Shown in pieces: positions 21,618-45,303 of a stretch of DNA of 64,000 nucleotides. The notes under the pieces are model-generated. The model saw only the letters and a program-made list of their open reading frames with translations, did not search any database and was not told the origin of the DNA. Numbering within the stretch: the first letter of the stretch is position 1; the number at the start of each line of letters is the position of its first letter. The stretch lies in assembly GCA_000091205.1 (NCBI GenBank), contig AP006499.2; one strand, written 5' to 3'. The DNA comes from Cyanidioschyzon merolae (taxonomy: Eukaryota). Made by a program: the position numbers and the translations under genes.

Positions 21618-22027
21618 CGTCTCTAAAGCGAATACGCCTGCGATGGTGTGCGGATTCCTCGTTCCGTATTTGCTTTCGAATGAGCGCAGGAATCCCGTTC
21701 AAGTATTGTGCTACGTTTGCGCGTATTCCATCTACCGTTTCACAAGCAAGTGGTCAGGGCGTGGATTTTAGACTCCTCGATCGACAACGATTTGCAAGTG
21801 AGCGCGGTGATCTCGCGCTTACGCTGCAAAACTCTCTCAAGACGCCGAACATTGATCAGCTCGCGTTGATAATAGCATGCCCCTACCTCCACGACGAATA
21901 CGCAGTGTAGAACTCAGGATAATTTGGAACTCCCATGGGGTATCCTCGGAGCACCTCGGATACTGCCAAATGTGGTGCTCGGACGGTTCATGTTTGCGCG
22001 GACTACAACAACACCACGAACCGCTCG

Positions 22028-22513: not shown

Positions 22514-22929
22514 TCAACGAAAACGGTGCGTTGTGAACGGTGCGGCGGCGTTGGTGCTGGGCGATCCCAGGATCCTACCTGCCACGATGGCCCCTGTTCC
22601 GAAGAGCCAACCCCGGTACTCGTATCCGATGAGCATGGAGTTATGAAGGACATGCTATGTTTCCGCCTTTTGAAGTTTTGTGGATTTGGTTTTGACGAAC
22701 AATCTCGGTATTCGTCGTATGGCAAGAACGGCACAGGGATTCATACGTAATTTTCGGAGTCAAAGTCGTCGTTTCGGAGTGGCTACTCGGAGTTTTTGCT
22801 ATCGAAATCTTTCACATCTCTGTGATGATCATGACTCATGACGTCTTCAAGCAAGCGTTCGTAACACAACCGATGTCAATATCGGGTTCATACACACAAG
22901 CGCCCAGTCTTCACTATTCCTTGCGTGCG

Positions 22930-23300
22930 GCGTGCTCAAACCACGCAATCTTCAAGTTTACAACGCTCGTGTTTCCGGGAGACGCATCGCCGGGGCGATT
23001 CGCGACCTTGGATTAAGGCCAAACAAAACCCGACTTTATCTCTTGGGGACTTGTTCACTCGTTCATGCCGAAAGCTCACGGAGCTTGTCACGTCGAATAA
23101 CTAATCCTGTCCGAGAGACGAATGCTCTTCTCTCTGGGGCCATCGACGAAACAGCATTGAACGGCAGGATGATATCTCTCGCAGGGGATTTGCTCCCAGT
23201 GACTCCTGTTCCTTCTTTCCGCATCGCATAGTGTTTTGGACTCGGGCTTTTGTTATCGCAGCGATCGCTGCCGGTGCCGCGTGCGTCATTGCATTGCGCA
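22930..23300 (+). repeat. Truncated, diverged copy of the dispersed repeat family (C-like, A and D blocks; B block absent)
   Basis: gcgattcgcgaccttggattaagg at about 22985 is C-like. ggggacttgttcactcgttcatgccgaaagctcacggagcttgtcacgtcgaataac at 23048-23105 is block A and encodes DLFTRSCRKLTELVTSNN*. ggactcgggcttttgttatcgcagcgatcgctgccggtg at 23238-23280 is block D. Confidence 0.6.
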
Positions 23301-24176
23301 ACGCGCGCGTAGACGAGTCGAAAGTTCTCAGCTGGATCACCAGCGTGGATTTTCCCTCCCGTCCTTGTTCCATCATGGACAACATCGCTTTCCACGTGCC
23401 TTTGTTCGAATAGAACAGTCTGCGATTGCACTCTCGGAAGAGAGAGGACTCGCCCAGGGAATCGCCCAGAACAGGCTTGTTATCGTAGGGTACTGTACCG
23501 ACACAGTCGGCTTCCAGGGGCATGTACCGAGCGATGAAGCAAGTGCTCGTGCGTAGTAGGGCGGTCCTCTGACCAGGAGATGCTGTGATTGTATGACAGC
23601 GCCTGATTACAGTCTAGTGTCCAGGCTGCAAATGGCCCAGCGATGCTGTCCACGAAGAACATGAAACGGTAAGCATAACCAAGACTGCAAAATTCGCATG
23701 CGCATGAAAAAAAAAAGTCTCGATCACATGCGGAAACGCCCAAGTCGAGACTTGAATACTGCCATCAACATCCTTCGACTGCTGACAACGAAGCTGGAGA
23801 GAAAGAGAGACTTAAACCCGGAGATGCGCGAGAGGAAACGCGAGCAATCGCAGATACAACCTACCAAGGCCGGTGTTGATGGGAATCAGGAGCGACCCAA
23901 ACAATAGCATGGACTCCCGAATGAGAGAACTGGGACCCATTCCAGATTCATCCGATTTCGATGGACTATCAGCAGAGATGGAATATACAGGTCTAGCCAG
24001 AATCGAAGACGGCACGACGCGTTTACCGGGAAACAGGGCTCTCCGCCTCCGCTAGGCGCTGAGCTCTCATTTCGGCCTCTGTGTTGCGGAGCGCATTTCC
24101 CGTCTGGCAGTTGGAGCTCCCGCGCTGCCTCCGTTTTGAGGCATCCCTCGCTCAGAACATGGCGTCACAAGTGCGC

Positions 24177-26159: not shown

Positions 26160-26862
26160 ACTCGGAAACGAACTTCAGTTTGATTGATATCCTCAGTTCT
26201 GTCAGCCGCTCTACGTTCTGATGTCGAGCGATACAGGAGGTTAGGTTCTTCGCTGTATGGGTCCAACTTGCGAGGGCCGGGGTGAACCCCAACGGTCTGT
26301 CAGCTGCTCGGTGTTTTGTTCTCGAGTGATGCTGCGCTTGATGTCACTCGCTAGACGAGTACAAAGTCCGAGCTGGTCGTGCAGTGGGCAGAAAACGCCA
26401 AGCACTGCTTCTGACGCCACAGTCGACTGGTAAAAGTTCACCCTAGACGGCGTTTACCAGCATCTGTGACCAGTTCACGAGTATAGACTAGGTTGAGTAT
26501 AAATTAAAATCACAGAGAAATAGCTGTTTGTACTGAACTTGAACGTAGCAGACCCGCTGCTGGCAACAAACGAACGAAATAGCGACCGTTCGACCACAGG
26601 CGGCTTCGAAAGAAAGGCGTCGGCCTCACAAAAGAAAACGTAAAGTGAGCGCGCTCCTGGTAGCTATGTTGATCACTGCGAGTTCACGAGATGGAAGCGC
26701 TCGATATAACTACAACGTTGAAACACAGACGCGGAGATACACACCAACCCCGAAGTCGTTCAAACGGTGTTTCACTGTTGTGCGCTGCAGCGCATATTCC
26801 GAAACCCGTCTGCGACTGGAATGGAGCAGGCCCGATGAGCGAACACGGGCTTACACGCGATA

Positions 26863-28276
26863 CCCATGTCAGCATAAAATGGAACAGGTCTACTTACCTA
26901 GCAGGAGCGTACACCCCAAAGTTTTCGTCTCATTCCATCGCCATGGACGTCGGCCTTTACGGGATGTTTCTGCGACTGTTTCCCTTCTCTCTCTCTCTGT
27001 ATATTCTCTGGCTCGCCATACGCCGGTTTCCCCTGTTCCTCCAGCTGCGTTGTCAGCAGTCTCAGAATGCTGTCGCCGGTGTTCAAGTCCCGAATTCATC
27101 GCTTCCGGCTGTTTCAGACAGAATTCGCGCAAAGACAGTAGTTGCGTTCTACGCCTCGGTTGCCGTTTGCACGACTTGCTTCGTGTAGATCCTCGTTGCG
27201 CCCTTCACAGTACTGACACGTGACCATGGTCGGGTATGCCCGTACGTCCTGGGCACCTGCTTCCCCGAGTGCTGCCTGCCACATGCACTGGACGCTCACC
27301 TCAGGGGACGACCCCATTTCCGTGCCCAGTGCCGTACGCGATGAACACGGTCTTCCGCGAGGCGATACACTCGGCGAGCATGCTGACTGCTGTGCGCGCT
27401 CAAACACACACACACACACACACACAGAGACACACATACAGACACAGACACATACTGACACACAGATACACAGACTCACACACGTCCACGCTGCTTCATT
27501 CGAGAGCGGATTTTTCTGGGACCCGATGTTGCTCATCGTGAGACAGGGACCGGAAGGAGCACTCACGCTGGAGAACAAGTCGCGAAATCTCGACCCGTCA
27601 TCGCTGCATTCGTGTCCAGCGTCCGTCACCGCGCTGCACACACGAAGCAAGCACTGCGATGACTCAAGCCCGAGCTCGGGAAGATTCTGTACTTGAAAGC
27701 AAGCTCTCGTAGCGTACTCCACAAAACGTATCACGCTGGTGCCGATTCCCGTTTCTTCGCTAGAGAGAGACAGCGCGGGATTCACCTCCTGAAGCACATC
27801 CATCCTCTTGTCGTGACTGGCTCAGTGAGCCTTCAGCATGAGCCCGTGAACGAAACCTCAAGCGTCGGTGTCGACGGTGCCCGGTCGACAATCCAACAGT
27901 GCGAGTCGCTGCGCTCATGGCTGGCATAGGGAGAAAAAAAGATTCGAAAACTTGAAGAATCCGTAATGTAAGCATGTCGATCGTAAGGCAAGCGGGAGAA
28001 CGGATGCTTGTTGATACGGGTCGGTCAAAGATACCGGTTACTTGTCGAACAACTGTTCAATAGCTTCGCGAATCGTCTTGATTCCATTTCCGTAAAAACC
28101 TTAAGCGGGACAGCGTGGAAGAGGCCACGCCCAACTGACGACCCAGCATCCTAAAACTACGCATGAATCCACACACCTTGATTGCAGCACTTTGAATATC
28201 CATGCGATGCACGAAAAAAAACACGAGTCCGGAAAGATATCGAAAGACCTGAACAGAGCGACAAGTTCTGTTCGCC
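26863..28276 (-). repeat. Full-length member (copy A) of the ORF-bearing dispersed repeat family, about 99% identical to 39001-40411
   Basis: Direct comparison with 39001-40411 shows identity except for about six SNPs and microsatellite length differences (offsets of 12138 to 12135). It contains block B (atg gat att caa agt gct gca atc, MDIQSAAIKVCGFMRSFRMLGRQ, about 28140-28215 on the minus strand), block C (IKTIREAIEQLFDK*, about 28051-28095), a degenerate block A at about 27835-27860, block D at about 27640-27690 and an internal imperfect (CA)n at 27403-27484. Confidence 0.9.
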
Positions 28277-28428
28277 GTCTTCATCGGGCTGGGTCATGGA
28301 AGGACACCGCGACCGCCGCTGCGACAACTTTCCTCCGCAGCGTTCGCCACTGGCAACACCTCTAACGTCGACTGTAACACTCGACGGGAAGGGACCGACG
28401 ACCCGGTGCGACCAAAGTCCAGATCATT

Positions 28429-31400
28429 ATGGCTACTACAAGGAGAGATACTTTATTGAAAATACAGGCAGAGGTGCAAAACTGGTGGGAACAGGAGCAC
28501 GTCTTCGACGTTGACGCTCCAGAAGACTTTGATGCCGAGGGCGGCTGGTCCAGTCTCGGAGTGGAGCCTCGGCAGAAACCGACGTTCTTCGTCACGTTTC
28601 CTTACATCTACGCAAATGGACCGATCCACCTGGGTCACGCGTTTTCGCTGAGTAAGGCGGAGTTTGCAGTGGCGTATCAACGTATGAAAAGACGCCCGTG
28701 CCTCTTTCCCTTTGGCTTTCACTGTACGGGGATGCCGATCCAAGCGTCGGCGACGAAACTGGCCAGAGAGCTGGAAACCTACGGGTGTCCGCCTCAGTTT
28801 CCCGACACGCCTCAGCGTACAGGTGCAGACGCAGGCCTGGATGCACCTGTCGACGGCTCGGTGGGGCTAAAGTCGAAAGTTTTGGCAAAAACTGGCGGCC
28901 TCCGCTTCCAATACCGTATTCTGCAGGCGGTCGGTGTTCCCGACACGGAAATTCCCTCTTTCACGGATCCGTTCAAGTGGCTCATGTACTGGCCACCGAT
29001 CGGTATGCAGGATGCGAAACAGCTTGGACTGCACGTGGACTGGCGGCGTTCCTTCATCACCACAGAGGCGAACCCGTATTACGACGCGTTCGTGCGGTGG
29101 CATTTCGAAAAACTCCGAGCACAAGGTCGTATCAAGTTCGGAAAACGCTACACCATCTATTCCCCGCTAGACAGGCAGGCCTGTGCGGATCATGATCGAG
29201 CTAGTGGCGAGGGTGTCCAACCACAGGAATACGTGCTGATAAAAATGCAGGTACTGGAGCCGTTTCCGGCTGTGTTGGAACCGCTCGCTGGGCGACGAGT
29301 CTACCTGGCTGCCGCTACATTGCGTCCAGAGACTATGTACGGTCAGACGAATTGTTGGATAGCGCCCGACGGAAGCTACGGTGCCTACGAGGTCAACGCA
29401 GATGGCGATGTGTTTATTGTCACAGAGCGAGCAGCGCGGAACCTCGCCTTTCAGTATTGGTCACCAGTCTACGGGGAGACACGCTGCCTATTGGGGCCCT
29501 TCCCAGGCGCGGCGTTGCTGGGTGCCGCAGTGCGCGCCCCGCTTAGCAGCTACGAGCACGTCTATGTGCTACCGATGCTAAGCATCACATCGGACAAGGG
29601 TACTGGAGTCGTTACCAGCGTACCGAGCGATTCACCCGACGATTACCGTGCGCTGCAGGACCTGAAAGAGAAGCCTGCTCTGCGTCGCAAGTACGGTCTC
29701 CGGGATGAGTGGGTGTTGCCCTTTGAACCGGTGCCCATCATTCAAGTGCCCGAGATGGGATCGCTCTCTGCTCAGGCAGCCTGTGAACGGTATCGGGTGC
29801 ACTCCCAGAACGATCGCGATGCGCTCGCCAAAGCCAAGGATGAAGTCTATCTGCGGGGCTTTTATGACGGAGTGCTCTTGGTGGGCCCCCATGCCGGCCA
29901 GCGCGTTCACGTTGCCAAGCCACTGATTCGTCAGCTGCTGCTCGACCAAGGCGATGCGGTGGTCTACTCGGAGCCAGAGCGCCCTGTTGTATCACGCTCC
30001 GGCGATGAGTGTGTGGTCGCGCTCTGCGACCAGTGGTACATCGATTACGGTGAGGAGCAGTGGAAGCAGCTCGCCAGAACGTGTCTAGAGGCCATGGAGA
30101 CGTACCACCCGGAAACGAAACGCAGTTTCGAAGCAGTCCTTGAGTGGCTTCGCGAATGGGCGTGCTCTCGTTCGTTCGGACTGGGAACGCGTCTGCCTTG
30201 GGACCCGCAGTATGTGATCGAATCACTCAGTGATAGCACGATCTATATGGCATACTACACCGTTGCACACATCCTGCATCGGGACTTGAACGGCCAGGTT
30301 CCGGGGGCGGCTGGTCCAGCCAGCCAACTCACTCCGGCTGTCTGGAACTATGTTTTTCTCGGTCAAGGCGATGCAGAATCTCTCCCGATACCCAGCTCTG
30401 TTGCACGAGCGATGCGGCGCGAGTTTCTCTACTGGTACCCGCTGAATCTGCGCGTGAGCGGCAAAGACCTGATCAATAACCATTTGACGTTCTTCATCTA
30501 CAACCATGTGGCTATCTTTCCGCCCGACAAGTGGCCTTTGGGAGTGCGCGCAAACGGCCATATTATGATCAACAATGAGAAAATGTCCAAGTCAACGGGC
30601 AACTTTCTCACGCTAGCGGAGGCAGTACGGAATTTCTCCGCAGATGCGGTGCGATTTGCGCTCGCGGATGCCGGCGACGGCGTTGATGACGCCAACTTTC
30701 AAGTGAAGACGGCGGATGAGGCTATTTTGAAACTGACAACTCTTTTAGCGCTCGCCACTGAAGCGCAGGCTCTGCTCAAGAATGGGCAGATGCGTTCAGG
30801 TCAGCCGCTTCAGTTCTGGGATCGCGTTATGGAGGCGGAAGTGGATGCACTGGTGGCAGCCGCAGCGCACGCGTACGAACGACTCGAGTTTCGAGACGCC
30901 CTCAAGTTCGCGTTCTATGAATTGCAGGATGCACTGGGGATTTGGCGGGTCGCTGTTGGCGGGGATACCGACCTCACAAAACTGCATCATGAGGTATGGC
31001 GTCACTATATTCATGCGCAGGTGATTGCGCTCTACCCGATCTGTCCGCATACGTGTACTTGGATATGGAGACGGCTGCTCCACGAAAAGTCGCCAGCCCC
31101 GCCAATGCACTGGCTGGAAACGAGCCCTTTACTGGGGTCACCCGAACGGGTCGCCATTCGAGCTGCCGGTCGCTATCTACAGGCGCTTTTGCATCGAGCC
31201 CGACTCGTGCTGCAGAAACGCCTTGCGCATCGATCGCAACGTGCAGGGGATGCTGCTGCCCCTACTGCTTCTACCAGCACCGATGACAAGGAAGAGCGCG
31301 AGCGCGACCCCAGTGATCAAGTAGGTGCTCGAGCTGTGCGCGTACGACTCGTGGTTCGCACGACACCAACAGCTTGGCAAACTCGCTGCGTCGAACTTGT

Positions 31401-31701
31401 TCAACAGGCGTATGACCCTACGACTCAGTCGTTTGCAGCGGACCTGCCGAAACGCATAGCTTCGGATCCGGTCTTGCGACGGGTTGCCAAACGAGCAATG
31501 GCACTGGCGATGACGTTGCGGGAGCGGAAGGACTTTACGGTGGCGCTTGAGTTTGACGAAAAGGCGGTACTTTTGGAAAATCTCGGCTACCTAGCGCAGC
31601 AGCTGGGCGTGCATGAAGTGGAACTAGATGTCGATGGCCCCGAAGCGGAGCAGCGCGGTGTCATCATGGGCGAACCCGTTATTCTCGTGTTTGATGCATA
31701 A
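28429..31701 (+). CDS. Leucyl-tRNA synthetase, cytosolic (archaeal/eukaryotic type)
   Basis: 1090 aa. It has the HIGH-region FFVTFPYIYANGPIHLGHAFSLSKAEFAVAYQRMKRRPCLFPFGFHCTGMPIQASATKLARE and a KMSKS motif (NEKMSKSTGNF). Both are colinear with eukaryotic cytosolic LeuRS. Confidence 0.95.
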   Translation: MATTRRDTLLKIQAEVQNWWEQEHVFDVDAPEDFDAEGGWSSLGVEPRQKPTFFVTFPYIYANGPIHLGHAFSLSKAEFAVAYQRMKRRPCLFPFGFHCTGMPIQASATKLARELETYGCPPQFPDTPQRTGADAGLDAPVDGSVGLKSKVLAKTGGLRFQYRILQAVGVPDTEIPSFTDPFKWLMYWPPIGMQDAKQLGLHVDWRRSFITTEANPYYDAFVRWHFEKLRAQGRIKFGKRYTIYSPLDRQACADHDRASGEGVQPQEYVLIKMQVLEPFPAVLEPLAGRRVYLAAATLRPETMYGQTNCWIAPDGSYGAYEVNADGDVFIVTERAARNLAFQYWSPVYGETRCLLGPFPGAALLGAAVRAPLSSYEHVYVLPMLSITSDKGTGVVTSVPSDSPDDYRALQDLKEKPALRRKYGLRDEWVLPFEPVPIIQVPEMGSLSAQAACERYRVHSQNDRDALAKAKDEVYLRGFYDGVLLVGPHAGQRVHVAKPLIRQLLLDQGDAVVYSEPERPVVSRSGDECVVALCDQWYIDYGEEQWKQLARTCLEAMETYHPETKRSFEAVLEWLREWACSRSFGLGTRLPWDPQYVIESLSDSTIYMAYYTVAHILHRDLNGQVPGAAGPASQLTPAVWNYVFLGQGDAESLPIPSSVARAMRREFLYWYPLNLRVSGKDLINNHLTFFIYNHVAIFPPDKWPLGVRANGHIMINNEKMSKSTGNFLTLAEAVRNFSADAVRFALADAGDGVDDANFQVKTADEAILKLTTLLALATEAQALLKNGQMRSGQPLQFWDRVMEAEVDALVAAAAHAYERLEFRDALKFAFYELQDALGIWRVAVGGDTDLTKLHHEVWRHYIHAQVIALYPICPHTCTWIWRRLLHEKSPAPPMHWLETSPLLGSPERVAIRAAGRYLQALLHRARLVLQKRLAHRSQRAGDAAAPTASTSTDDKEERERDPSDQVGARAVRVRLVVRTTPTAWQTRCVELVQQAYDPTTQSFAADLPKRIASDPVLRRVAKRAMALAMTLRERKDFTVALEFDEKAVLLENLGYLAQQLGVHEVELDVDGPEAEQRGVIMGEPVILVFDA

Positions 31702-32570
31702 AGTGCCTCTGACACAATACGAGGTCGCATGTGGGCGACAATTAGACCTGCGCACGGTGCTGCTGCGAGCACTGTTATCCTAGACAGCGCAGGTGGCGCT
31801 TTCGGATATTGCCAGGAGGAGACTTTTTGTTCGTGTTTAGTTTGCAATCTGAAAGCGGTACACCAGTTCGGTGTTAGAAGCGGAAAACCCTCGCACGGAC
31901 TGCTACGGATCTGTGCTGACTGGGAATCACTCGAGCGTTGTTGTTGCTCCAGAGGCGGCCTCGCTGAACCAGAACATGTGCCAGTTCAGTTTAGCAGACG
32001 TTGAGGTACCGAGCTTTTTGCAGGCGTCGCAAGGAGGAAGGACGGCCCTGCGACGCCTGTGCGTACGTCGGCACTAGACTCCCTGTCAAACGAGCATGCC
32101 GAGCGCTGAACGATTCCAGCAAACGCACGGCGATGTAGCGATGCTGCATTCGAGTATAGCACAGAATTCCCGACAGCACCATTGCGAGTATGCGAATGCC
32201 TGCCGCCCCCGCGATACCATCCCGAAGGTGTTTTCCATTGTATTGGACTCGTGTTTTGGAAAACTGATTCGGACAGGTGGATTCGTGGATGTGCGTCCTG
32301 TATCGCAGTTTATCCAGGTCTGGATATGAAAGAGGTTTCTCGGTTTCCAGGGGATACTTCCAGCGGATTCGAGGATACGGGTGCTGTTGCTCAGTCCATA
32401 CAGGTTCGATTGTCGTCTGCATTCCTCCGAATGCTCATGTATGACGCTACCGCTTTCGGCAATGTTTAAGGACTCCGTTGAAATCCATGGGCATCACTCA
32501 GCATCGATAGAAGAGCGCTGTGCTCGCGCCTGCACTCCACGGTCTCCGCCGGATGCCCGTGCAGGTCCTC

Positions 32571-32598
32571 CATACATACACACACACACACACATACA
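32571..32598. repeat. (CA)n microsatellite
   Basis: catacatacacacacacacacacatacac, lying between the convergent LeuRS and IPMS 3' ends. Confidence 0.85.
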
Positions 32599-33198
32599 CC
32601 CTGATTGCATCGCGGAAGGAGCCAGTGCATCCTGCATCTGCGCCCCGGATCACGATAACGCCTGCGAGAATTCGTATCGTTCACTTTGTCGAGATGCCTA
32701 ATGGGGTCCTGTGCTTTTCGACAGAAAAGCATACGTGACCGCCTCCCAGATCGTTGGACGAAGCATGCGGCCTCGTATTCGACGCGGACTCTGGTGTTGC
32801 ATCTGCTTGACTTCAATATGCACAGCACCTTTTTTATTTGCAAGGGACCACCATGGCGTTCAGTAATACGTGTACCATAACAGTAAACCGGCCATGAAAC
32901 ATACTCAGTCGACAGATGCACCAGCCGTGCCGCTCGTGTCATCGCGAGTGCGCCGCCGTCTTGCAGCAGGTCCTGGTTTCCGAGGCCTCCCGAACGACCC
33001 TCGAAGAAGGGAGCAAATTGTCCAAAATTGGTTTGGATAACTGCACGTGTTTCTCGTTCGATACGGGCGTCATGCCACATATTGCGAAAACTCCATGCAG
33101 ACTGCAACTTCATGACGTTTTGCATTGTATCGGGTACTTCAGCGAAGGCTCGCCAGATCCGCTCAGAGCGCAACCGACGACGGCGGCCGCCACATGCA

Positions 33199-35160
33199 TC
33201 AGGCACTGCTATGTTGCGGGTGAATCGGCTGGGGCGTATTCGTATTCCGGCTGCATCGATTCAGAGCATTCACATAGGCCTGAACCGAGGCGGTCACCAC
33301 GTCGGTATCTGCGGCATAACCCGTAAAGATGCGATCCATGCGCCGATCCCGAACGCGAACCATAACCTCACCAAGCGAATCGATGCCACTCGTGACGCTG
33401 GACACAGTATACTCGAGCAGCTCAATATCCAGTCCATGCTGCGCAACGACGGCGTTGACAGCACAGTACGCCGCATCGACGGGGCCTGTACCAGTCCGCG
33501 GAACGGTAACCTCTTTGCCGGTCTCCATGACAAGCAGAGTCACCGTTGCGGTCGGTATGCTCGATGAGCCGCACTGCACCTGCACTCGCTTGAGTTTGAA
33601 ATGCTCGACCCCGATTTCCTTCAGGCCACCACTCACAATCGCCTCCAGGTCCGCGTCGGTAATTTCGCGTTTTCGATCCGCAAGCTCCTTGAAACGCAGA
33701 AACGCTCGGTTGAGGTCGTCGTCGCTGAGCTCGAAGCCCAGTTCCGTGAGGCGTGCCCGAAACGCCGCTCGGCCACTCAGTTTGCCCAGAGAGATCGCAT
33801 TCGTGGTGGCACCCACGGTATCAGCGCTCAGGATCGAGTACGTAGAGGCGTTACGGAGGTATCCGTGCTGATGTATACCCGACTCGTGACGGAAAGCGTT
33901 AGCGCCCACCACGGCCTTATTCGGTGCAACGACCATACCGGTGAGGCTCGACACCATTCGACTCGTCTTTGCAATTTCTCGAAACTGAATGTTCGTCAGC
34001 TGACGATCACTATGACCCGACGCAATATCATCCCGCCCAAAAACTCTGGCATAGTAATTGCGGCGCACGTACAGCGCCATGACGAGCTCTTCGAGAGATG
34101 CATTCCCCGCCCGTTCCCCGATTCCATTCACGGTAACCTCGACCTGGCGAGCGCCTGCCTCACAGGCAGCGAGGAAATTCGCAACACTCATACCCAGATC
34201 ATCGTGACCGTGCACGGAGAGAATAACATCGCCGGTCCGAACGCCCGGGACGTTCTCGTAGATGCCTCGTATGAGGGTGTACATTTCGTTCGGCGTAATG
34301 TACCCGCAGGTGTCGGGGACGTTGAGCGTGGTCGCCCCTGCCTCCGCGGCCCGACGGAAAGCCTCGTAGAGAAACTCGGGGTCTGACCGCGTTGCGTCCT
34401 CAGCCGAAAACTCCACGTCCTTGCAAAGCGAGCAGGCGTAACGCACTTGTTCCGATATGATGTCGAGCACCTCAGCGCGCGTCTTGCGCAACTTGTGCTC
34501 GAGATGAATATCGGACGTGGCGATGAAGGTATGGATACGGGGAAATGCCGCAACCTCTATGGCTTCCCAGCATCGTTTTATATCTGCGGCGGTGGCGCGA
34601 GCCAGGCCGCAAATAATCGGCGGATTGGGCCGGTTCCCAACTTGCTCCGCAATCCGACGCACAGCCTCAAAGTCGCCGTTGCTCGCAGCCGGGAAGCCGG
34701 CCTCCAGAACGTCAACACCAAGCGCGGCCAGTTGACGCGCCAGTGTCAGCTTCTCTTCGGCGTTCATGGCGGCTCCTGGAGACTGCTCGCCGTCGCGACA
34801 CGTGGTATCGAAGATGCGCACGCGCTCAGGGTCCCGCCCCGTGGCGACATCGTGCGCAGTAGGCTTCACCGGTACGCGTACGACTGGGCGCTCTGCTCTA
34901 GCGCTCGCGTCACTAACCGCGTTGCCTATCATGAGTAAGCGCTGAAGCGAGTCCCTTGTGCGTAAACCTCCAAGGCCTCTGCTTCGTGGCCGCCCCGCCG
35001 CACGGGGCACACCACGCCGACTCGCGAACGGAAAGGTAAACGCTGCCCTTGACGCTTGATCCGAGACATGTCCAAAACACTCCTTACGTACGCTGGATAT
35101 GGTCCTGTGGCTCGTCCATGATGGACCACAGAATGCTATGGTAGCGTACGCTTGCCACAT
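33199..35160 (-). CDS. 2-isopropylmalate synthase (LeuA type I, bacterial/plant-like) with an N-terminal transit-peptide-like extension
   Basis: 653 aa. [58 protein letters not shown] gives the DRE-TIM metallolyase N-terminal signature. [49 protein letters not shown] gives the HxH metal site. A C-terminal LeuA allosteric domain is present. The first 110 or so aa are Arg/Ser-rich. The real start may be an internal Met (MIGNAVS...). Confidence 0.95.
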
Positions 35161-35180
35161 GTTTTACACTCGCAACAGTG

Positions 35181-35227
35181 CACACACACACGTATACACA
35201 CACGTACACACACACGCACACACACAA
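35181..35227. repeat. Imperfect (CA)n microsatellite in the IPMS/DEAD-box divergent intergenic region
   Basis: cacacacacacgtatacacacacgtacacacacacgcacacacacaac. Confidence 0.85.
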
Positions 35228-37153
35228 CAGGTGTCCTGCGTGCGCACTGAACGCTCGCCGTCGCGTTGCACGCATAGCGCCCTGCGATACGTGCGCGGGA
35301 TCGCCGGCGCACCGGCGATCTTTTGTTGGACAGAACGTCCACACGTACACCAGGCATCCCCGATGAGGCGCTTGAGATCAGCGCGCGTGCGCAAGCATCC
35401 ATCATTACTCGTTTGACCTGCTCGTTCAACCACCGATATACTCCCTGTGAAATACTGGATATTTGCGACTTTGCATAGTCCACCGTGTCTGAATCTAGCA
35501 TACAAAATGTCGCCGATATTTCCAAAGTGAACACAGCAGGAAACCTGACCAACTTTGTCATACAAGTGAGGGCATCGGCACGTCGATACCGAGATCGCCT
35601 GTTTTCATTCATCGTGCACTGACACTAGCGCATGGCACGGGGATGCAGCATGTCGCTGGCATCATTATCACCGTTATCATCGTCGTCGCGCCTCGAGCCG
35701 AAGCCCTCACTTGTATGAGAAATTTGGTCAGGTTTCCGTTCTGCGTTTGCATTGGCGCGATCGGCGACATATTGGATACTAGAGGCAGGATCGACGGACA
35801 ATGGAACGTGGGAAATAACCGAGATCTCTGAAGGATCCTATGACTCATGCAAGTTTACGGATGACGGGGCGTGGAACGATGAACCCGTCCCTGACCGTTG
35901 ATGTCAAGTGCGTTCCCGGGAGTCTCCGGTCCGTATAAACGACCTGCGCAACAACGGTATCCATATGGACACCGAAACGCTAGAGCGGGACCTGCTGCTG
36001 ACCTGCATGTGCCACAGGCGGGGTTTCGGAGAGGCGCTGCGGCTCCACGGCGGGCGCCGCTAAGCACCCAGACGCCATCCAGCGCATGTCGATATCTTGT
36101 CAATTATGCAACGGTTATGGATCGTACTGGCTGTACAAACCACTCCTCGGCGAGACGACGACACATCGTGCATGCAAGTAATGGGCAGCATAACTTTGGG
36201 CGATCCGCTACCGCTTCTATGCTGCGGTGGTAACGAGCACGCTGAGAGTCGCCTTGTCCGTCCATCTAATCTCAGCGTAAAAGTTGCGGGACTTTTGGAG
36301 CACGACAACGCATGCTTTGCTCCCCGCAGCGAACGGTAACAGGAAACAGAGCTTCCGGTCTTCTGGTCCAGGAGCATCCCGAACGCCATCGTTGCGCAGC
36401 GTGCGGGCTCGCACACCCCCTGAAACATGTGCCGTATTTGGAGAGTATCTTGAGTGCACGATTGCTGTATGGAACCAGAGAGGAGTGCTCAGATCCCCTG
36501 CAGTTGCTTGTATGCTACATTAATTTCGCAGCGCACCCTACCTCAGGAACAAAGGTTGGATACGAATATCACCAAAACAGCGCTAGCTGCATACCATTCA
36601 GCCATTGTTCGCATGATGGGTCTCGCGGTGCTCCCAGGATATGTAGAGGGAACGCGATCCCACATCCGCAAAGACATTCAAAAGCTCTGCTGTCTCTGGT
36701 TGTCTCTTTGGCAGTGGCGGTTGCACCTTCGACGTCCCAGCAAGCACCAGAGGTGGCCTCGGTAGCCGCAGGTTTATTGGATTCATCCGACCTCGATTCT
36801 CAGCGCACGACTGCTCCGGAGTTTGTGTAACCTACTGGATACTGCGGGAGCGCAATTAGCTCCATCCTGGATACCACTTCATAGCCTGGGTGCATCCATG
36901 AGGTTGAATCTGTTTCGCTCCGTCGATCTCCCGACTAGTGAGCACCACGAGTGCGCCACGGCGCTCTGGCGCAGCCGCAACGCTTGTTCTACATCTCTAC
37001 GTAGGCGGCTTCGAAGCCGTGTTTGGATGTTGGCTGTCTGGCAGTGTCGCGCACGGAACGGAACCTCAGTAGTCTTGTCGCTCATACGATATAAAAATTT
37101 CACAGGCACTCTCATCCGCTAGTTGGTAGCTGCATCCTTCAGTCTCTGTCAAG

Positions 37154-38365
37154 TTGGCGTCGACAAGTGGACGTTCGTGGAGCCGGCTGCTTTCCTCAGA
37201 CCTGATCCAGGCGTTGCATGCGCTCCGTCTGAGCCGGCCGACCCAGGTACAGGCCACGGCTATACCTGCGGCGCTAGAAGGTAATCATGTAGTTCTAACT
37301 GCGCAGACAGGCTCTGGAAAGACCCTGGGATATGTTCTTCCGTTACTAGAGCTACTACGGCGAGACCGTGCTCGTGAGGCACGAACGACCAGCCCAGCGT
37401 CGCCGTCGCCTCAGGCACTGATCGTCGTTCCGACTCGCGAGTTGGCTGCTCAAGTCTGCCGTGTCTGGAGCGACTTTACGGAATGCACGGGTCTGACGTG
37501 CTCGCTGCTGACGCGACAAGCGTTTCAAACTTCGAATGAAGTTGCCGCATGGGTGTCGCCCGCTAGGGATACTGCTGGAAAGGGAGAACCGGCGCTCTGG
37601 ACTCGCTTGCGCCATCTGCGCTACCTTGTTCTAGACGAGGCAGACAGCCTGTTTGCTATGCAGCAGCGCAACCAGCTTGCACCGCTTCCGTTGCATCGAC
37701 TCCAAGGCGGACAGCTGTGGTGCGTTGCCGCCACGATGACTCGCGGCTCACTCGCCCAGGTCGAAGCGCTGGCCCGAGCGCTGACGCCATCCCGAAAACT
37801 CTTCATTGCTCGAGATAATGGGCTCCACGAACCGCCACGAATTGTGCGTATTCGTTTCGAACTAGTTCAGCATCCGCCGCAGAAGGTGACGCGTTTGCTC
37901 GAATGGCTGCAAGCCGACGCTCGTGGTCTACTCCGAGACGGCAAAAGTACCCTCGTGTTCTGTAATTCCATCCAGACCTGTCGTTTCGTGCAGCACACGC
38001 TTCGTGAGCAGGGCGTCCTTGCCCTCGCGTGCCACGGCGGGATGCCTACACGTATGCGAGACGCGGCAGTAGAGCAATTCGCCAACGGCACCGCTGATGT
38101 GCTGATTTGTTCGGATTTGATGGCACGGGGAATCGATTGGCCCTTTGTCGGGCGAGTGCTCAGCTTTGACGCACCAGCAACATACCATCATTTTCTGCAC
38201 CGAGCAGGACGTCTACGTAGGGGCGGTGATTGCATCACGCTCATACGCAGAGCGCGCAGAGAGCAAGACCTCGCCATGATGATTGCGAAACGGTTTCCGG
38301 AGCGCACTCATTGGCAGGTAATGGAGCAGCAACCAAGCCTTGGGCGTGATCGGCTCCGGCCCTGA
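37154..38365 (+). CDS. DEAD-box ATP-dependent RNA helicase (short, about 400 aa core only)
   Basis: It has a Q-motif region (LSSDLIQALHALRLSRPTQVQATAIPAAL), motif I TAQTGSGKTLGYVLP, motif II LVLDEAD, a motif III-like VAATMT and a motif VI-like HRAGRLRRGG. Confidence 0.8.
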   Translation: MASTSGRSWSRLLSSDLIQALHALRLSRPTQVQATAIPAALEGNHVVLTAQTGSGKTLGYVLPLLELLRRDRAREARTTSPASPSPQALIVVPTRELAAQVCRVWSDFTECTGLTCSLLTRQAFQTSNEVAAWVSPARDTAGKGEPALWTRLRHLRYLVLDEADSLFAMQQRNQLAPLPLHRLQGGQLWCVAATMTRGSLAQVEALARALTPSRKLFIARDNGLHEPPRIVRIRFELVQHPPQKVTRLLEWLQADARGLLRDGKSTLVFCNSIQTCRFVQHTLREQGVLALACHGGMPTRMRDAAVEQFANGTADVLICSDLMARGIDWPFVGRVLSFDAPATYHHFLHRAGRLRRGGDCITLIRRARREQDLAMMIAKRFPERTHWQVMEQQPSLGRDRLRP

Positions 38366-39000
38366 GCATCCGACGACTTGCTTTGACACATTCTCGCTTT
38401 TGGAAGAGGTGCCTGCTGTTGTGAAAGGGGTGTGTTTGGACGCTTTCTGGTCTTGCGGATACAGACGCGATTGTTCATGAGGGCTTCTGTGGTCGCAGGA
38501 ACGTTTCAAGGAATTGTGTAGCTTCGATCCCGACGTATTGGTGCCTCGCTCGCCGAAAGCTAACTCGTCTTTTGCTGTGCATAAATCTGTTTCTCTGATG
38601 AAGCTTTGCGGTGTTGTACTGCGACCGCACTGAAGTGATGCGACTTGGAGGCACGTTGGCCGGTCCGTCGCAGAAAATTAGCGCAGCTTTTCCGGAAGTG
38701 TCATGAACACTCCGCATCTATGGCACGATGCAGCGAACCACCGGAATGTCACTGCTCTATCGATCGCTTCTGTTTCGATTGTTTCGCTCTGGAATTGGAC
38801 ATGAAAAGCGTGATGCGGCCAACCGAGGCGAATCGCATGCAGGACGCAGTCTCTCGACTTTGTCTGCAATCGTCGGCACCAGTATTTGTCAGGATGATGA
38901 ACAGTGGAAGAACGACTCCGTTTTGTCGGGGTATGCAAGCCGTGTGCACGTTGAAAGATACTCGCAAGCCGGTGCGGTTGGAATCGCGGGGTGCACAATA

Positions 39001-40411
39001 CCCATGTCAGCATAAAATGGAACAGGTCTACTTACCTAGCAGGAGCGTACACCCCAAAGTTTTCGTCTCATTCCATCGCCATGGACGTCGGCCTTTACGG
39101 GATGTTTCTGCGACTGTTTCCCTTCTCTCTCTCTCTGTATATTCTCTGGCTCGCCATACGCCGGTTTCCCCTGTTCCTCCAGCTGCGTTGTCAGCAGTCT
39201 CAGAATGCTGTCGCCGGTGTTCAAGTCCCGAATTCATCGCTTCCGGCTGTTTCAGACAGAATTCGCGCAAAGACAGTAGTTGCGTTCTACGCCTCGGTTG
39301 CCGTTTGCACGACTTGCTTCGTGTAGATCCTCGTTGCGCCCTTCACAGTACTGACACGTGACCATGGTCGGGTATGCCCGTACGTCCTGGGCACCTGCTT
39401 CCCCGAGTGCTGCCTGCCACATGCACTGGACGCTCACCTCAGGGGACGACCCCATTTCCGTGCCCAGTGCCGTACGCGATGAACACGGTCTTCCGCTAGG
39501 CGATACACTCGGCGAGCATGCTGACTGCTGTGCGCGCTCAAACACACACACACACACACACAGAGACACACATACAGACACAGACACATACTGACACACA
39601 GATACACAGACTCACACACGTCCACGCTGCTTCATTCGAGAGCGGATTTTTCTGGGACCCGATGTTGCTCATCGTGAGACAGGGACCGGAAGGAGCACTC
39701 ACGCTGGAGAACAAGTCGCGAAATCTCGACCCGTCAACGCTGCATTCGTGTCCAGCGTCCGTCACCGCGCTGCACACACGAAGCAAGCACTGCGATGACT
39801 CAAGCCCGAGCTCGGGAAGATTCTGTACTTGAAAGCAAGCTCTCGTAGCGTACTCCACAAAGCGTACCACGCTGGTGCCGATTCCCGTTTCTTCGCTAGA
39901 GAGAGACAGCGCGGGATTCACCTCCTGAAGCACATCCATCCTCTTGTCGTGACTGGCTCAGTGAGCCTTCAGCATGAGCCCGTGAACGAAACCCAAGCGT
40001 CGGTGTCGACGGTGCCCGGTCGACAATCCAACAGTTCGAGTCGCTGCGCTCATGGCTGGCATAGGGAGAAAAAAAGATTCGAAAACTTGAAGAATCCGTA
40101 ATGTAAGCATGTCGATCGTAAGGCAAGCGGGAGAACGGATGCTTGTTGATACGGGTCGGTCAAAGATACCGGTTACTTGTCGAACAACTGTTCAATAGCT
40201 TCGCGAATCGTCTTGATTCCATTTCCGTAAAAACCTTAAGCGGGAGAGCGTGGAAGAGGCCACGCCCAACTGACGACCCAGCATCCTAAAACTACGCATG
40301 AATCCACACACCTTGATTGCAGCACGTTGAATATCCATGCGATGCACGAAAAAAAACACGAGTCCGGAAAGATATCGAAAGACCTGAACAGAGCGACAAG
40401 TTCTGTTCGCC
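39001..40411 (-). repeat. Full-length member (copy B) of the ORF-bearing dispersed repeat family; it forms a direct repeat with 26863-28276 around the LeuRS/IPMS/DEAD-box segment
   Basis: See copy A. The six-frame ORFs are identical between the two copies. For example, 38991..39326 matches 26691..27188 and 39036..39224 matches 26898..27086. Confidence 0.9.
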
Positions 40412-41379
40412 TTTTTCACCTGACACGAGTGCATGAGCATCGTTCTATCGCTGCAGCGGCCAAGACTGGCCCGTAAGAAAAGTTGAAAACCCGCATGCTG
40501 ATGACCAGTTCGCAAACTGGGATACCCTCTCCCGCTTATGATGCTACCCAATCAAAAGATACCGTCTTGCGCTGTCATGGGTATGCGTCTTGTACAATAG
40601 CTACCAAACGCTCTTACGCTCACATGCTCGTGCGATGAATTTGGTCAAAAATAGCGTTTCAGGAAGCGCTTCCCCGATGACAACCGCACCAAGGCATCAG
40701 TTGGTGCTCGTGCACGGCTTCTGCACCCGCAATGCTGTGCTCAGGTAGGATTCGTGCATCGCACTCGAAATTTCCAGGTGCGCGATTGCCGAAGGTCAAA
40801 AACTCCATAAAAGATTTCACATTCTTCACACTCCCTTCATCGGTCCATGTATCCAAGCAAAGTGCTCCTTGAGGAGTCTCGCCTCAACCAAACTTGAATG
40901 GCGCTCTGTTTATCACCAACGTCGCATGCATGAATCGAAGCGAATGCCCCCGATTGCTCAGTTGGCTACAGTCTCCATGAAAAAGACCTCAAATCGCGCA
41001 AGTATCTCAGCATGCTCTGCGAGCAGCAAACGAATCGCCTCACATCAACCCTAAAATAAACGTGTCGAGGAATCGACGGCGGGGCGTTAAAGAGCGGCTA
41101 AACCCCACGTGCAAACATTCACTGGATACCACCCTGGATACGTTGTAGCTGACGCTGCATCCGATACTTGATGACCCTGCAATAACCGAGTTTTTTCGAT
41201 CAACAGAATGTTTCGATGGACTTGAATACCCGATATGGCCGCGTACCTACCCGCCGCCACCACCAACACCACCAACACTACTAAGACCAACACTTTCACC
41301 ATCACCGCCGTCAGCCCTTGGACGTTGGTGCGGTAACGATTTTCATGGGAAAACGGAGGCAGGTGGGCGTTATCTTCAT

Positions 41380-41646: not shown

Positions 41647-44600
41647 ATGCAGAGTCCTGCGGAAGCATTGTCGCAGCAGCATGCACAAGGTTGGCACTTC
41701 ACGAGAGGACCTTTCGCCGTACTCGGCTTTGTCAACCTGTTTCCTGCGGGGGCTGGATCGAACTTTGCTACGAGAAACTTGCTACGGAAAGGTCGCTGCA
41801 GTAAACAGCAGCTGCGGGGAAAGCGCTGGTGCTGTGTGCGCGGCTTCCGAGTAGAGCGTCAGTCCCTGCAGGCTGCCGCCGAGGTGCCGACGCCTTACCG
41901 CTTCGCGCTGGGGCGAGCACCGGTCGAGCGAGCCAAGGCAGCGGGACCGATCTCGCAGCAGCATGCTCGATCAGAGGAAGAGTTGAACGAACTCGTAGCG
42001 AAGAGGTTCTTAGAACTGGTCCGCAGTGAGGGCACTGGGCCCGTTGGCGTTCCGGCTCAGCTGGTGAAGCCGGCTTGGCTCGAATGGAGCGACCGCATGG
42101 CCACCAGGCTGGCTGGTTTGGGGCAAGTCTGGCGCGTACTCTTCAGTGTGCTACTTGCAGCAACTATTGGGGCGGCTGCGGCCGGCGTAACGCCACCGGG
42201 ACGTCGACGCGCTGCGGGTTTCGCCGCGGGTGCGCTTCCAACTGCAGCGCTTGCCGTGGTGATGCTCCGGCGGGGACGCTCGATTGGTGCACCGCGAGCG
42301 CTCGCAAGCGCTCTTGTCGAGAGCACGGTTGCTGTATCGACGAAGAACATGCCGAGTGCGAGCGATGATCAGCGTCGCCGTGCAGACGACAATGGCGGCG
42401 AAGACACGGAAAGCGACGACAATGGAGCGACGTCCTCAAACGCGCCACCGCGACTGGGGCTTGCCTCACACATCGATCCGGAGATGATTCAGCGTGTGGC
42501 AATACAATACGGGATGCAGCCGGACGCTCCATCGTGGAAGCTGGAGACGCTTGTTGGTCTCTATGAACGATACCTACTGGCTTTGGTGCAGACGAGCGGC
42601 ACGCCGCGCGTCTCCGAAGTTCGCCAGTTGAAAGCACTGCGCTCCGCGTTTGGTCTGAGTCATGTCGATGTCGGTGACGCGCATCATCAAGTAGCGATGC
42701 GTTTTCGTAGAGAAAATTTCGTCTATATTGACGACTATATTCGCGCACAAGACGTCGACGATCGGAACTATGATGAGATCTTCCGGGAACGCGCACAAGA
42801 TGTGAATCAGAAACTTTCCAAGCTACTCTTCCTATCTGCACGCGTGCTCGACGATCCAACTGAACCAGAGGAGGCTTACCGCTACGAAATGGCCCGCTTG
42901 CGCAACGTATTTGACTTGTCAGAATCAGAGTTTCAGGCGCGTGTTCGTGACATTGCCGTTCCTTTCTACCAGACCGCAGTGCGGAAGGCTGTATGGCTGC
43001 TTGAGCAAGGTCGGTCGATCACTTTAGAGAAATTGCGATCTGCTCGGGAAATGCTGGATGTTGACGATGGCACCGCTAGTCGTCTGCATCTGGAGGCGTA
43101 TGGAGCGCTCGTGCAGCGCCTCCTGCAAGCACATTCGAACGAGAAAGTCCCACGTCTATCCGCAAAAGACATGAGCGTGCTCCAGGAGGCAAGGAGGCTT
43201 TTGGATATCGATGCAGGCGATGCAGATGCGCTGCTCCGCGATGCCGCAGAGCCGCTCTATCAGCAAGAGGTGGAGCGCGTCGTTGAGTCTGCAGATCTTC
43301 GCATTCCTACGGCACATGGGCGCCTAGCGGTGCGTCGGGAAGAGCTGGGGCTCAGCGTAGAGCTCGCACGCACAGCGGCAGAGAAGTGGATTCGCGGGCG
43401 TGTTACCGCTATCCTGAAGGATGCCACACGAGCGCTCCGCGTTCAGAACCTTACCATGACGATTGAAGAACTGAATCGCCTGCTGGGGCTTATCCGCAGA
43501 AGCTTGAGCATCATTCATGGCGTCGTCTGGGAAGAGGTCGTTCCGAATTCGGCCGAGCAACGCACCGTGAACGCGTCACTGGAGCGTATCATGAGTGTGC
43601 TCCTTGATGAGCTCGCGGACCTAGAGCGCCAGCAGCTCTATCGAGTGTACCTGGCAAAATGTCTTGAGGACCGCATGATTGACGCACAAGAAGGACGCAA
43701 CCTCGATGATCTTCGCGCCGTTCTGCGTATTTCTGAAAACGAAGCTGCCCAAGCGTACAACCGTGCTGCTGGTCCCGTCTACCGGGAAGCTGTGCTCGAG
43801 GTCATGGCAAATCGAAGCGAGTTTACGGACGCGGATATCCAGAGCCTGAACCAAATAGCAGGCGACCTGCATATACCGGCCAAGGTTGCCCACGATATTC
43901 GTATGGAGCTGTATCGAGAGCGTCTTGAAGCGAGCACCCGCGATAATCGGGTACCATCGGAGGAAGAGTCCAGTCAGCTGGCGCGTTTGCGAGAGCTGCT
44001 CCAGTTGGATTCGGAGGCGCTCGCGGCACTGCACGCCAGCGTCTGCGCAGGCACCTATGCGCAGTCAGTCGACGAGTGCATGGGCTCGAACGGCATCATC
44101 CCGGAGCCGTATCGCGCCGGGCTGGAGCGTCTGCGACAACGGCTCTGCCTTGATGAACGACGTGCCCGAGAGCTCTTCCTGCAGGTAGCTCGTCGACGAA
44201 TGGCGGGCTATGTACAGCGCGCGATCAAGCTCCTCCAGAAGAAACAGTCGTTTCGGGGTCAGGATGAAGAGCGCGATGTCGGTGACGATCCCTTCGTGCG
44301 ACGAGCGGGCGCTTTTCTGGGCATCGAGGCGGGTACCATCACCATTGAGCTGAGTAACTTGATCGATTTCTACATCCGCAATGGAATCCTAGAGATGGAG
44401 AATGAACAGGCTGTGTACCCGGTGAACCTCCGGGGTGTCTTCGATCTGAACATTCTTCAGGAGATGTATCGACAATACCTCATCCAGTCCTTCGCAGCGA
44501 AAAGTCGCACAGAAAAGGAGCGCCTCTTTAACAACCTCGCACATTTGGGGAACATCCTGGGCCTTACTTCAGCCGAGGTCAATGCCATTCATTCGAATAT

Positions 44601-45303
44601 CGGCTCCGTAATCTACAAAACCTATGCATCACAGGCGCTGACGAATAATCGGCTCGAGGAGAAGGATATCGAGTTTCTGCGGAATATTCAAAACATGCTC
44701 AGCATGGACGAGGCAACGTGCAGGACGCTGCTCCAAGAGACAAAGGAGGCGCGCGCAGGCTTCCTCTTTGACAAGATCTTCTCTCGCACATTTGGGATGG
44801 CGGAAGCGGTGGCAGAGTTTCGACGCGTGTGTCGCGAGCTTGACGTTGATCCTGTGCGGGACCTGAAACTCACCGAGGATCGTCGTGTTCGAGCTTTTCG
44901 GGCAGAGATAGAGCACGCCATTGAGAACGGACTCATTACGCCTGAGAACCAAAGTCTGCTGAAGGAGTCTCAAGAAGAACTGGGGATTTCAGCGGAAAAA
45001 GCTCGACAGGTTTTGCTCGACTGCATCCAGGATCGCTGCGAGGCGCTCATCGTGCAGGCGGCAGCGTCTCTGCGTCAACGTCGTCAAGAGGGCGCAGCGC
45101 GAGACTTGAGCCGAGCGCTGCGCTTTGGCAAGTTGCTTCCGTTCCAGGTGCAGACGCCCACGGTGACGGGTGCAGAGCGCCAAGAGCTCTACCTGGTGTA
45201 CCAGGCGTATGCGCTGGGCACCGCCCGCTCTAATGCCGAGAACGATCAGGTGAAAGAGGATCTCGCGCTGCTGCGAGAGATGTTGGGAATCCAAGCCGCC
45301 TAA
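41647..45303 (+). CDS. TIC110: Tic110-like protein (chloroplast inner-envelope translocon scaffold)
   Basis: 1218 aa. An N-terminal presequence is followed by two predicted TM helices (WRVLFSVLLAATIGAAAAGV; AAGFAAGALPTAALAVVML). A large domain then follows, built from at least 12 helical repeats that each begin with an L..LR..L(G/D)L(S/D)..EA-type motif (LKALRSAFGLSHVD; LARLRNVFDLSESE; LQEARRLLDIDAGDA; LARLRELLQLDSEA; LERLRQRLCLDERRA; LAHLGNILGLTSAEV; LRNIQNMLSMDEAT; LKESQEELGISAEKA; LALLREMLGIQAA). This is the architecture I recall for Tic110. Confidence 0.65.
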   Translation: MQSPAEALSQQHAQGWHFTRGPFAVLGFVNLFPAGAGSNFATRNLLRKGRCSKQQLRGKRWCCVRGFRVERQSLQAAAEVPTPYRFALGRAPVERAKAAGPISQQHARSEEELNELVAKRFLELVRSEGTGPVGVPAQLVKPAWLEWSDRMATRLAGLGQVWRVLFSVLLAATIGAAAAGVTPPGRRRAAGFAAGALPTAALAVVMLRRGRSIGAPRALASALVESTVAVSTKNMPSASDDQRRRADDNGGEDTESDDNGATSSNAPPRLGLASHIDPEMIQRVAIQYGMQPDAPSWKLETLVGLYERYLLALVQTSGTPRVSEVRQLKALRSAFGLSHVDVGDAHHQVAMRFRRENFVYIDDYIRAQDVDDRNYDEIFRERAQDVNQKLSKLLFLSARVLDDPTEPEEAYRYEMARLRNVFDLSESEFQARVRDIAVPFYQTAVRKAVWLLEQGRSITLEKLRSAREMLDVDDGTASRLHLEAYGALVQRLLQAHSNEKVPRLSAKDMSVLQEARRLLDIDAGDADALLRDAAEPLYQQEVERVVESADLRIPTAHGRLAVRREELGLSVELARTAAEKWIRGRVTAILKDATRALRVQNLTMTIEELNRLLGLIRRSLSIIHGVVWEEVVPNSAEQRTVNASLERIMSVLLDELADLERQQLYRVYLAKCLEDRMIDAQEGRNLDDLRAVLRISENEAAQAYNRAAGPVYREAVLEVMANRSEFTDADIQSLNQIAGDLHIPAKVAHDIRMELYRERLEASTRDNRVPSEEESSQLARLRELLQLDSEALAALHASVCAGTYAQSVDECMGSNGIIPEPYRAGLERLRQRLCLDERRARELFLQVARRRMAGYVQRAIKLLQKKQSFRGQDEERDVGDDPFVRRAGAFLGIEAGTITIELSNLIDFYIRNGILEMENEQAVYPVNLRGVFDLNILQEMYRQYLIQSFAAKSRTEKERLFNNLAHLGNILGLTSAEVNAIHSNIGSVIYKTYASQALTNNRLEEKDIEFLRNIQNMLSMDEATCRTLLQETKEARAGFLFDKIFSRTFGMAEAVAEFRRVCRELDVDPVRDLKLTEDRRVRAFRAEIEHAIENGLITPENQSLLKESQEELGISAEKARQVLLDCIQDRCEALIVQAAASLRQRRQEGAARDLSRALRFGKLLPFQVQTPTVTGAERQELYLVYQAYALGTARSNAENDQVKEDLALLREMLGIQAA

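Follow-up and report, generated by a model that had tools for sequence, protein, structure and literature searches.

The stretch of DNA analyzed here (hereafter the window, 64,000 nucleotides of contig AP006499.2) is part of chromosome 17 of the alga Cyanidioschyzon merolae 10D, with a G+C content of about 55% that dips at repeats and with intron-poor genes on both strands. Within the window, two nearly identical 1.4 kb sequences, termed copies A and B, lie on either side of a 10,721-bp interval that holds the genes for a leucyl-tRNA synthetase (LeuRS), a 2-isopropylmalate synthase (LeuA) and a DEAD-box helicase, as identified by Pfam. Copies A and B are most likely a pair of dead Fanzor1-type element relics that have been homogenized by ectopic repair, and the pair is real in several strains. 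The features of the locus are as follows:

26860-28276, relic gene on the minus strand, copy A; tract 99.4% identical to copy B (self-BLAST, MAFFT)
28429-31701, plus strand, cytosolic-type LeuRS (Pfam), starting 153 bp past the copy A tract
33199-35160, minus strand, LeuA-type 2-isopropylmalate synthase (Pfam: HMGL-like, HCS_D2 and LeuA_dimer)
37154-38365, plus strand, DEAD-box RNA helicase (Pfam; nearest solved relative DDX28)
38998-40411, relic gene on the minus strand, copy B, orientation as in copy A; tract 99.4% identical to copy A
41647-45303, Tic110-like open reading frame (ORF), 100% identical to the NCBI protein of strain 10D

An earlier note on this DNA had described two near-identical direct copies bracketing the three genes, and both parts of that description are borne out, by self-BLAST and MAFFT for the copies and by Pfam for the genes. 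The copies are direct repeats with a period of 12,138 bp and 99.4% identity over 1,417 bp, beginning 3 bp further left than previously placed, and identity drops immediately to background beyond the tract on both sides. In place of the approximately six single-nucleotide differences plus microsatellite indels given earlier, nine differing sites were counted, comprising seven substitutions (copy A positions 27359, 27601, 27726, 27731, 27901, 28111 and 28191), a 2-bp indel in an AC microsatellite (27404-5) and a 1-bp indel at 27858. The (AC)n microsatellite lies within the dead ORF, at 27404-27483 in copy A and 39542-39619 in copy B; a 229-aa ORF of copy A crosses this array and is broken in copy B by the 2-bp indel.

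The 1.4 kb family and its Fanzor1-type remains

An nhmmer search of the window identified four further members of the family, which BLAST barely detects, bringing the total to six copies:

6095-7086, relic gene on the minus strand, copy E, same orientation as A and B; internal deletion of approximately element positions 414-836
15216-16568, relic gene on the plus strand, copy C, opposite to A and B; full length, old (nhmmer)
22655-23951, relic gene on the plus strand, copy D, opposite to A and B; full length, old (nhmmer)
58677-59295, relic gene on the plus strand, copy F, opposite to A and B; half copy, only element positions ~783-1412

The existence of these four members agrees with the earlier note, but the 70-80% similarity it assigned to them does not hold, as identity between lineages is 55-63% in global alignment (Kimura two-parameter distance, 0.52-0.72) and 64-69% in local BLAST segments. 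The A/B lineage is 67% identical to the family consensus compared to 68-73% for copies C to F. All six copies are intergenic, and the limits of the other copies coincide with those of A and B. A BLAST comparison of extended flanks between copies found no homology outside the 1.4 kb unit, and the idea that the family is part of a larger 3 kb element was rejected since nothing is shared beyond that unit. The left ends and the reverse-complemented right ends of all copies align to a terminal motif of about 24 bp, ACCCGTGTCAGATGAAAATGGA. The family thus carries an imperfect terminal inverted repeat of ~24 bp and the element measures ~1.44 kb. Target-site duplications, which the earlier note had considered for the ends of A and B, were searched at both candidate end definitions of the copies and none were found.

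Six-frame translation of all six copies identified no intact ORF, as every frame is broken, and tblastx similarity between copies is equal in all frames with none preferred; in the A/B lineage, the relic ORF carries stops, frameshifts and the (AC)n array. The nature of the ancestral gene is indicated by the family consensus. Fanzor1 proteins are characterized by the motif D-X(125-275)-[TS][TS]-x-x-C4 zinc finger-X(5-50)-RD, and the signature E-x-x-TT-x-x-CxxC...CxxC...RD-x-N-x-A-x-NI (PMC3627910) was found in the consensus, while every copy existing today has degenerated. In translation antisense to A and B, the consensus runs ...KPVFIGYGTGHGNG...VDVREHPTTVKCHCC...FCLCMNC...NRDLNTAINILRLL; its RD region reads NRDLNTAINIL, and upstream lies GLGLESS, which corresponds to VLDSG in copy D. 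In copy D the RuvC-I-like LDSG, the GY and the RD-N-A-NI motifs share one frame (23233-23784), with 170 codons from the D-like residue to RD. In copy A, the following remnants were located, all on the minus strand:

27054-27092, minus strand, RD/RuvC-III remnant
27117-27140 and 27201-27230, minus strand, zinc-finger half remnants
27313-27345, minus strand, GYG motif remnant
27654-27677, minus strand, RuvC-I-like remnant

A Fanzor1 profile was made from the C-termini of seven published Fanzor1 proteins taken from the supplement of PMC3627910 and run against 2,015 six-frame fragments of the window, with E values at Z=2015. The consensus translation, in which one frame junction was chosen by the analyst, matched at 26.8 bits and E=4.7e-7, and copy D matched in a single unstitched frame at E=0.0012. 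Among the 2,015 fragments the top match was a separate CMe-1-like relic described below, with copies D, E and C ranking second, fourth and fifth, the matching site being in each case the RD motif on the strand expected. The only Pfam family reported for this region of the consensus was Cas12f1-like_TNB (PF07282), below threshold at 10.5 bits versus a cut-off of 26.3 (E=0.7). The consensus translation had no match in a large protein index, a search limited by its word index, and phmmer against the PDB returned no Fanzor or TnpB match for the consensus, only zinc-ribbon noise (L33 at E ~0.8). For the whole window, Rfam at the gathering threshold gave no match and ARAGORN identified no tRNA; accordingly no Rfam match marks a guide RNA at the 3' end of the element, the guide RNA itself not having been modeled. 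On the basis of the consensus motifs and profile matches, the family is assigned to long-dead relics of a putative Fanzor1-type DNA element, with a gene for a TnpB-like RuvC nuclease, that are non-coding today.

Fanzor1 elements of C. merolae have been catalogued as CMe-1A and TE-N2_CMe (Bao & Jurka 2013, PMC3627910), and some CMe-1A elements in the genome are reported to keep intact Fanzor1 ORFs (PMC3627910). When the 3,169-bp CMe-1A consensus was used in nhmmer, none of the six family copies matched, the matches in the window being at 49880-51401, 59282-59506, 35329-35586 and 35689-35942, and the CMe-1 protein matched the family consensus weakly (tblastn E=0.018). Judged by these comparisons, the 1.4 kb family is distinct from the catalogued CMe-1A element. 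Additionally, the family terminal motif contains CGATGA(A/C)AA, corresponding to the opening 10 nt (CGATGACAAA) of the CMe-1A consensus, which hints that the two may share end sequences.

Related species and independent assemblies

The gene order ApaG-DHX37-cyt b5-TRAPPC13-LeuRS-LeuA-DEAD-Tic110 is common to the window and to Cyanidiococcus yangmingshanensis (L008), a relative from JGI (L001/L009) and a relative from ENA (L010), the last with two additional genes upstream of LeuRS. No family members were found in these relatives, and their spacers at the sites of copies C, D, A and B are shorter by at least about one element length. Since the relatives are syntenic and lack the family, it spread in the C. 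merolae lineage after the split from Cyanidiococcus and decayed thereafter. An apparent absence of LeuA beside LeuRS in the most distant relative was rejected, as an unannotated 690-aa ORF there is LeuA by tblastn. The DEAD-box helicase ORF has no ATG within its first 120 codons and a listed start of TTG; it is also truncated by gene callers in the relatives, and the start may lie elsewhere or an intron may be present.

Near-identical strains were found by a metagenome scan with LeuRS and by exact-protein look-ups; for LeuA and Tic110, look-ups of the exact protein returned no entry. An 88.8 kb contig (JGI Ga0078972_1001444, L002) is 99.56% identical to window positions 18426-41696 (23.3 kb) and has both element copies, at 8436-9855 and 20573-21992, with A-type and B-type unique flanks, respectively, on both sides, so that all four junctions recur. 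The two copies in L002 are 100% identical, and both carry a T at 27325 that is absent from both 10D copies; the AC array is 4 bp shorter than in 10D copy A and 2 bp shorter than in 10D copy B. The identity of these copies may reflect concerted evolution, or the assembly may have collapsed the repeat into one consensus and used it twice. A MEGAHIT k141 contig (L011) spans 28136-39138, that is, the inner segment with 141 bp of element at each end, and runs from the right end of A through the three genes to the left end of B, which is the pattern expected of a unitig broken at a repeat with two contexts. This branching of the graph at the repeat shows that the chromosomal form exists. A further contig (L007) begins at 28280, where copy A ends on the right. 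Both L007 and L011 thus reproduce the right limit of the tract, and L011 also the left one, in strains that are ~0.5% diverged. For 10D versus L002, neutral divergence amounts to ~0.65% over spacers and 0.46% over copy D, compared to 0.49% between A and B of 10D.

Origin of the near-identity between copies A and B

Beyond the right boundary of the identity tract, sequence belonging to the family continues at both loci:

28277-28296, minus strand, outer right terminal repeat of copy A, outside the tract; family-derived, differs from its B counterpart
40412-40433, minus strand, outer right terminal repeat of copy B, outside the tract; 17/22 match the old-copy majority

A profile built from copies C to F only aligns past the boundary, reaching 28288 at the A locus and 40433 at the B locus, and family homology outlasts the tract by 12-20 bp at the former and by 22 bp at the latter. 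Immediately outside the tract the two copies agree at only 9/22 positions, versus 99.4% identity inside it. When a position weight matrix from C to F was applied in register over 22 columns, the fit had P=0.004 at A, or P=0.0005 with only the first 12 columns, and P<3e-5 at B. On the right side, therefore, the tract of identity ends within older, diverged homology, as expected of a pair of converted copies, while the left end of the tract is the element terminus within ~2 bp and is uninformative on conversion. The spacers upstream of LeuRS, compared across species for a possible origin of 28277-28296 as ancestral spacer, are not alignable.

The presence of divergent family sequence past the right boundary at both loci argues that each locus held its own family member, and an identity tract lying inside both diverged members argues for homology-directed copying rather than a new insertion or an arbitrary duplication. 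As the tract ends nearly coincide with the family ends, the copied unit was the element and not an arbitrary segment, and as A and B are as decayed as C to F relative to the consensus, the copied sequence was already a dead relic. Alongside the observed repeat anatomy, family, Fanzor1 similarity, divergent terminal remnants, presence in other strains and absence from relatives, we infer ectopic gene conversion as the mechanism, and we consider homology-directed copying between two resident dead relics somewhat more probable than all other accounts together. Two loci would each have held a diverged, long-dead copy, one of which would have been overwritten from the other by homology-directed repair, possibly repeatedly, over a tract from the left end of the element to ~20 bp short of its right end, which would have left the outermost right terminal sequences of the two loci as old, and as different from each other, as before. 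C. merolae is recombination-proficient, and its nuclear DNA is known to undergo both gene conversion and targeting by homology (PMC3764038).

Several points weigh against conversion. Copying between partners of ~57% identity is mechanistically hard and would need repeated or continuous homogenization since insertion, and copies C and D, in the same orientation and only 7 kb apart, have not been kept alike. The left tract end at the element terminus (~2 bp) is what a mobile unit would also show. No GC-biased excess of substitutions was found, the ratio of W>S to S>W changes being 1.09 in A/B and 0.83-1.16 in the other copies. The identical copies of L002 with their shared 27325 T may be a collapsed consensus, in which case they are no proof of concerted evolution. 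The A-B divergence of 0.49% is not significantly below the neutral inter-strain value of ~0.65%, so that a single event just before the strain split is compatible with it and timing is not decisive. The search for a third near-identical copy covered the 64-kb window of the 10D genome.

The most serious competitor, which we nevertheless regard as unlikely, is a recent duplicative mobilization, in which a dead, non-autonomous copy, say B, was moved in trans by the machinery of an active relative and inserted at the other site shortly before the sampled strains diverged. The copied unit is the family unit with its left end at the terminal repeat, the A-B divergence is similar to that between strains, the intact CMe-1A ORFs noted above (PMC3627910) could be such relatives, and the first 10 nt of the CMe-1A consensus resemble part of the family terminal motif. 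However, the outer ~20 bp of the right repeat is not common to A and B, though both versions are family-like, and there is no target-site duplication. The copied sequence is also ~33% off the family consensus, making recognition by a transposase doubtful, and no transposase is known for these elements. The proposal of the earlier note that the pair arose by recent transposition or by a segmental or tandem duplication is accordingly not supported, given the decay of A and B, their divergent ~20 bp ends and the recurrence of the tract limits across strains.

A one-off templated or non-homologous segmental duplication, in which a break was repaired with a 1.4 kb copy of sequence lying 12 kb distant, would fit with a donor and recipient that share chromosome and orientation and lie near each other. 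We consider it distinctly improbable, since the tract ends within ~2 bp and ~20 bp of pre-existing family ends, which is very unlikely for an arbitrary patch, and since the recipient flank is itself family-derived. On balance, ectopic gene conversion remains the preferred explanation of the A/B identity.

Recombination potential and comparison with known systems

The earlier note had also regarded the pair as a substrate for recombination, which stands, as two 1.4 kb direct repeats lie 12 kb apart in a recombination-proficient organism (PMC3764038). Its description of the arrangement as composite-transposon-like is superficial only, as no copy encodes anything intact and the right ends of B (outer) and A (inner) have diverged; no duplication was found around the whole A-B unit, either at 26859/40412 or at the extended ends. 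The elements today would act only as 1.4 kb direct repeats, and crossing-over between A and B would either remove the 10.7 kb LeuRS-LeuA-helicase segment or double it in tandem. As a haploid should not survive without its cytosolic LeuRS, only non-crossover outcomes or duplications would persist.

One metagenomic contig bears on this. L003 (JGI Ga0209012_1003373) is a complete 12,177-bp contig that runs from 30717 to 40418 and then from 28284 to 30705, and thus holds a single element together with the inner segment in circular permutation, needing another 11 bp to close. Its left flank is that of B and its right flank that of A, and the element mixes A-type with B-type alleles and carries private changes. 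L003 may represent a circle or tandem junction from A x B recombination or, equally well, an assembly-graph cycle from a collapsed repeat, and the pair is a plausible, if unproven, recombination hotspot. A bolder reading takes A and B as a maintained recombination cassette, from which the block would pop out as a 12.1 kb circle or amplify in tandem in natural populations, with L003 as a real amplicon. If this were true, selection for that capacity would explain why only A and B of the six copies stayed identical, but we rate it as a long shot. Finally, the suggestion that an assembler placed a single copy twice is refuted and its probability is practically negligible, as A and B differ at nine sites in 10D, the four junctions to unique DNA recur in L002, and L011 and L007 agree; nothing here speaks for it, the context being only that 13 former assembly gaps are reported to match duplicates of 99.4-100% identity located elsewhere in this genome (PMC1955436), repeats of this sort having been hard to assemble.

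C. merolae serves as a model of a minimal, repeat-poor eukaryotic genome, and the window is locally dense in copies of a Fanzor1-related family other than the catalogued CMe-1A. The A/B pair suggests that dead copies can still be homogenized over 1.4 kb, which in this haploid alga would be the trace of homologous repair acting ectopically. Repeat pairs of this kind break short-read assemblies and can yield circular-looking contigs, and near-identical 1.4 kb repeats bracketing essential genes are a practical hazard for engineering by homologous recombination. The general understanding of transposon relics and of gene conversion is unchanged.

Sequences related to CMe-1A itself are present elsewhere in the window:

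35329-35586, plus strand, and 35689-35942, minus strand, inverted pair of CMe-1A 5'-end fragments (first ~255 bp, TE-N2_CMe-like)
49880-51403, plus strand, diverged CMe-1-like Fanzor1 gene relic (tblastn, nhmmer)
59282-59506, minus strand, CMe-1A 5'-end fragment (positions 5-206), abutting the truncated side of copy F

By tblastn the relic at 49880-51403 matches CMe-1 aa 453-697 (31% identity, E=3e-21), and with nhmmer it corresponds to positions 1415-2994 of CMe-1A. It is directly preceded by a 70-bp tandem array (49113-49882, ~11 units, with a core of 8 units 95% alike) and followed by a 74-bp tandem repeat starting at 51820 (51820-52000+). The inverted fragment pair sits in the LeuA-helicase spacer, within the A-B interval. 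This spacer shows the highest divergence between 10D and L002 (1.10%), and a CA/12-bp microsatellite adjoining the pair (35181-35226) exceeds its 10D length by ~47 bp in L003. Insertion of the CMe-1A fragment at 59282-59506 probably cut copy F short, or the two were joined by rearrangement.

Compared to CMe-1A, the 1.4 kb family shares the same genome, an interspersed and mostly decayed state, a Fanzor1 (TnpB-like) gene and the lack of recognized target-site duplications. It differs in unit size (~1.44 kb with room for ~430 codons, versus 3.2 kb and 734 aa), in its imperfect terminal inverted repeats, CMe-1A being described as without them, and in divergence (55-63% between copies, versus ~80% to consensus for CMe-1A). 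The C. merolae genome was also reported to contain, in 253 copies, a new interspersed repetitive element, averaging 3.2 kb and present roughly once every 65 kb, whose truncated ORF weakly resembles WSV486 of WSSV (Nozaki et al. 2007, PMC1955436), a virus that carries a Fanzor1 protein (PMC3627910). That repeat is likewise interspersed, non-functional and Fanzor-related, and the 1.4 kb copies may be counted among the 253. However, six 1.4 kb copies in 64 kb is a density far above ~1 per 65 kb, which suggests local clustering or an under-counted family.

Two recombination systems in other organisms offer parallels to the pair as a whole. In Leishmania, amplification between direct repeats yields circular or tandem amplicons. 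The A/B locus resembles this in that direct repeats flank a gene block and in the circularly permuted, one-repeat-plus-block topology of L003; it differs in that no condition that would select for amplification is known, that L003 may be a cycle in the assembly graph, and that the case here comes from assembled contigs. A parallel to the favored conversion is found in yeast, where ectopic gene conversion homogenizes dispersed transposon copies such as the Ty elements. Unlike the Ty elements, the relatives of A and B are only ~57% identical, and one pair would have kept converting while four siblings escaped. As with Ty conversion, non-allelic copies have become nearly identical along a tract with an end within the element, and no crossing-over is involved.

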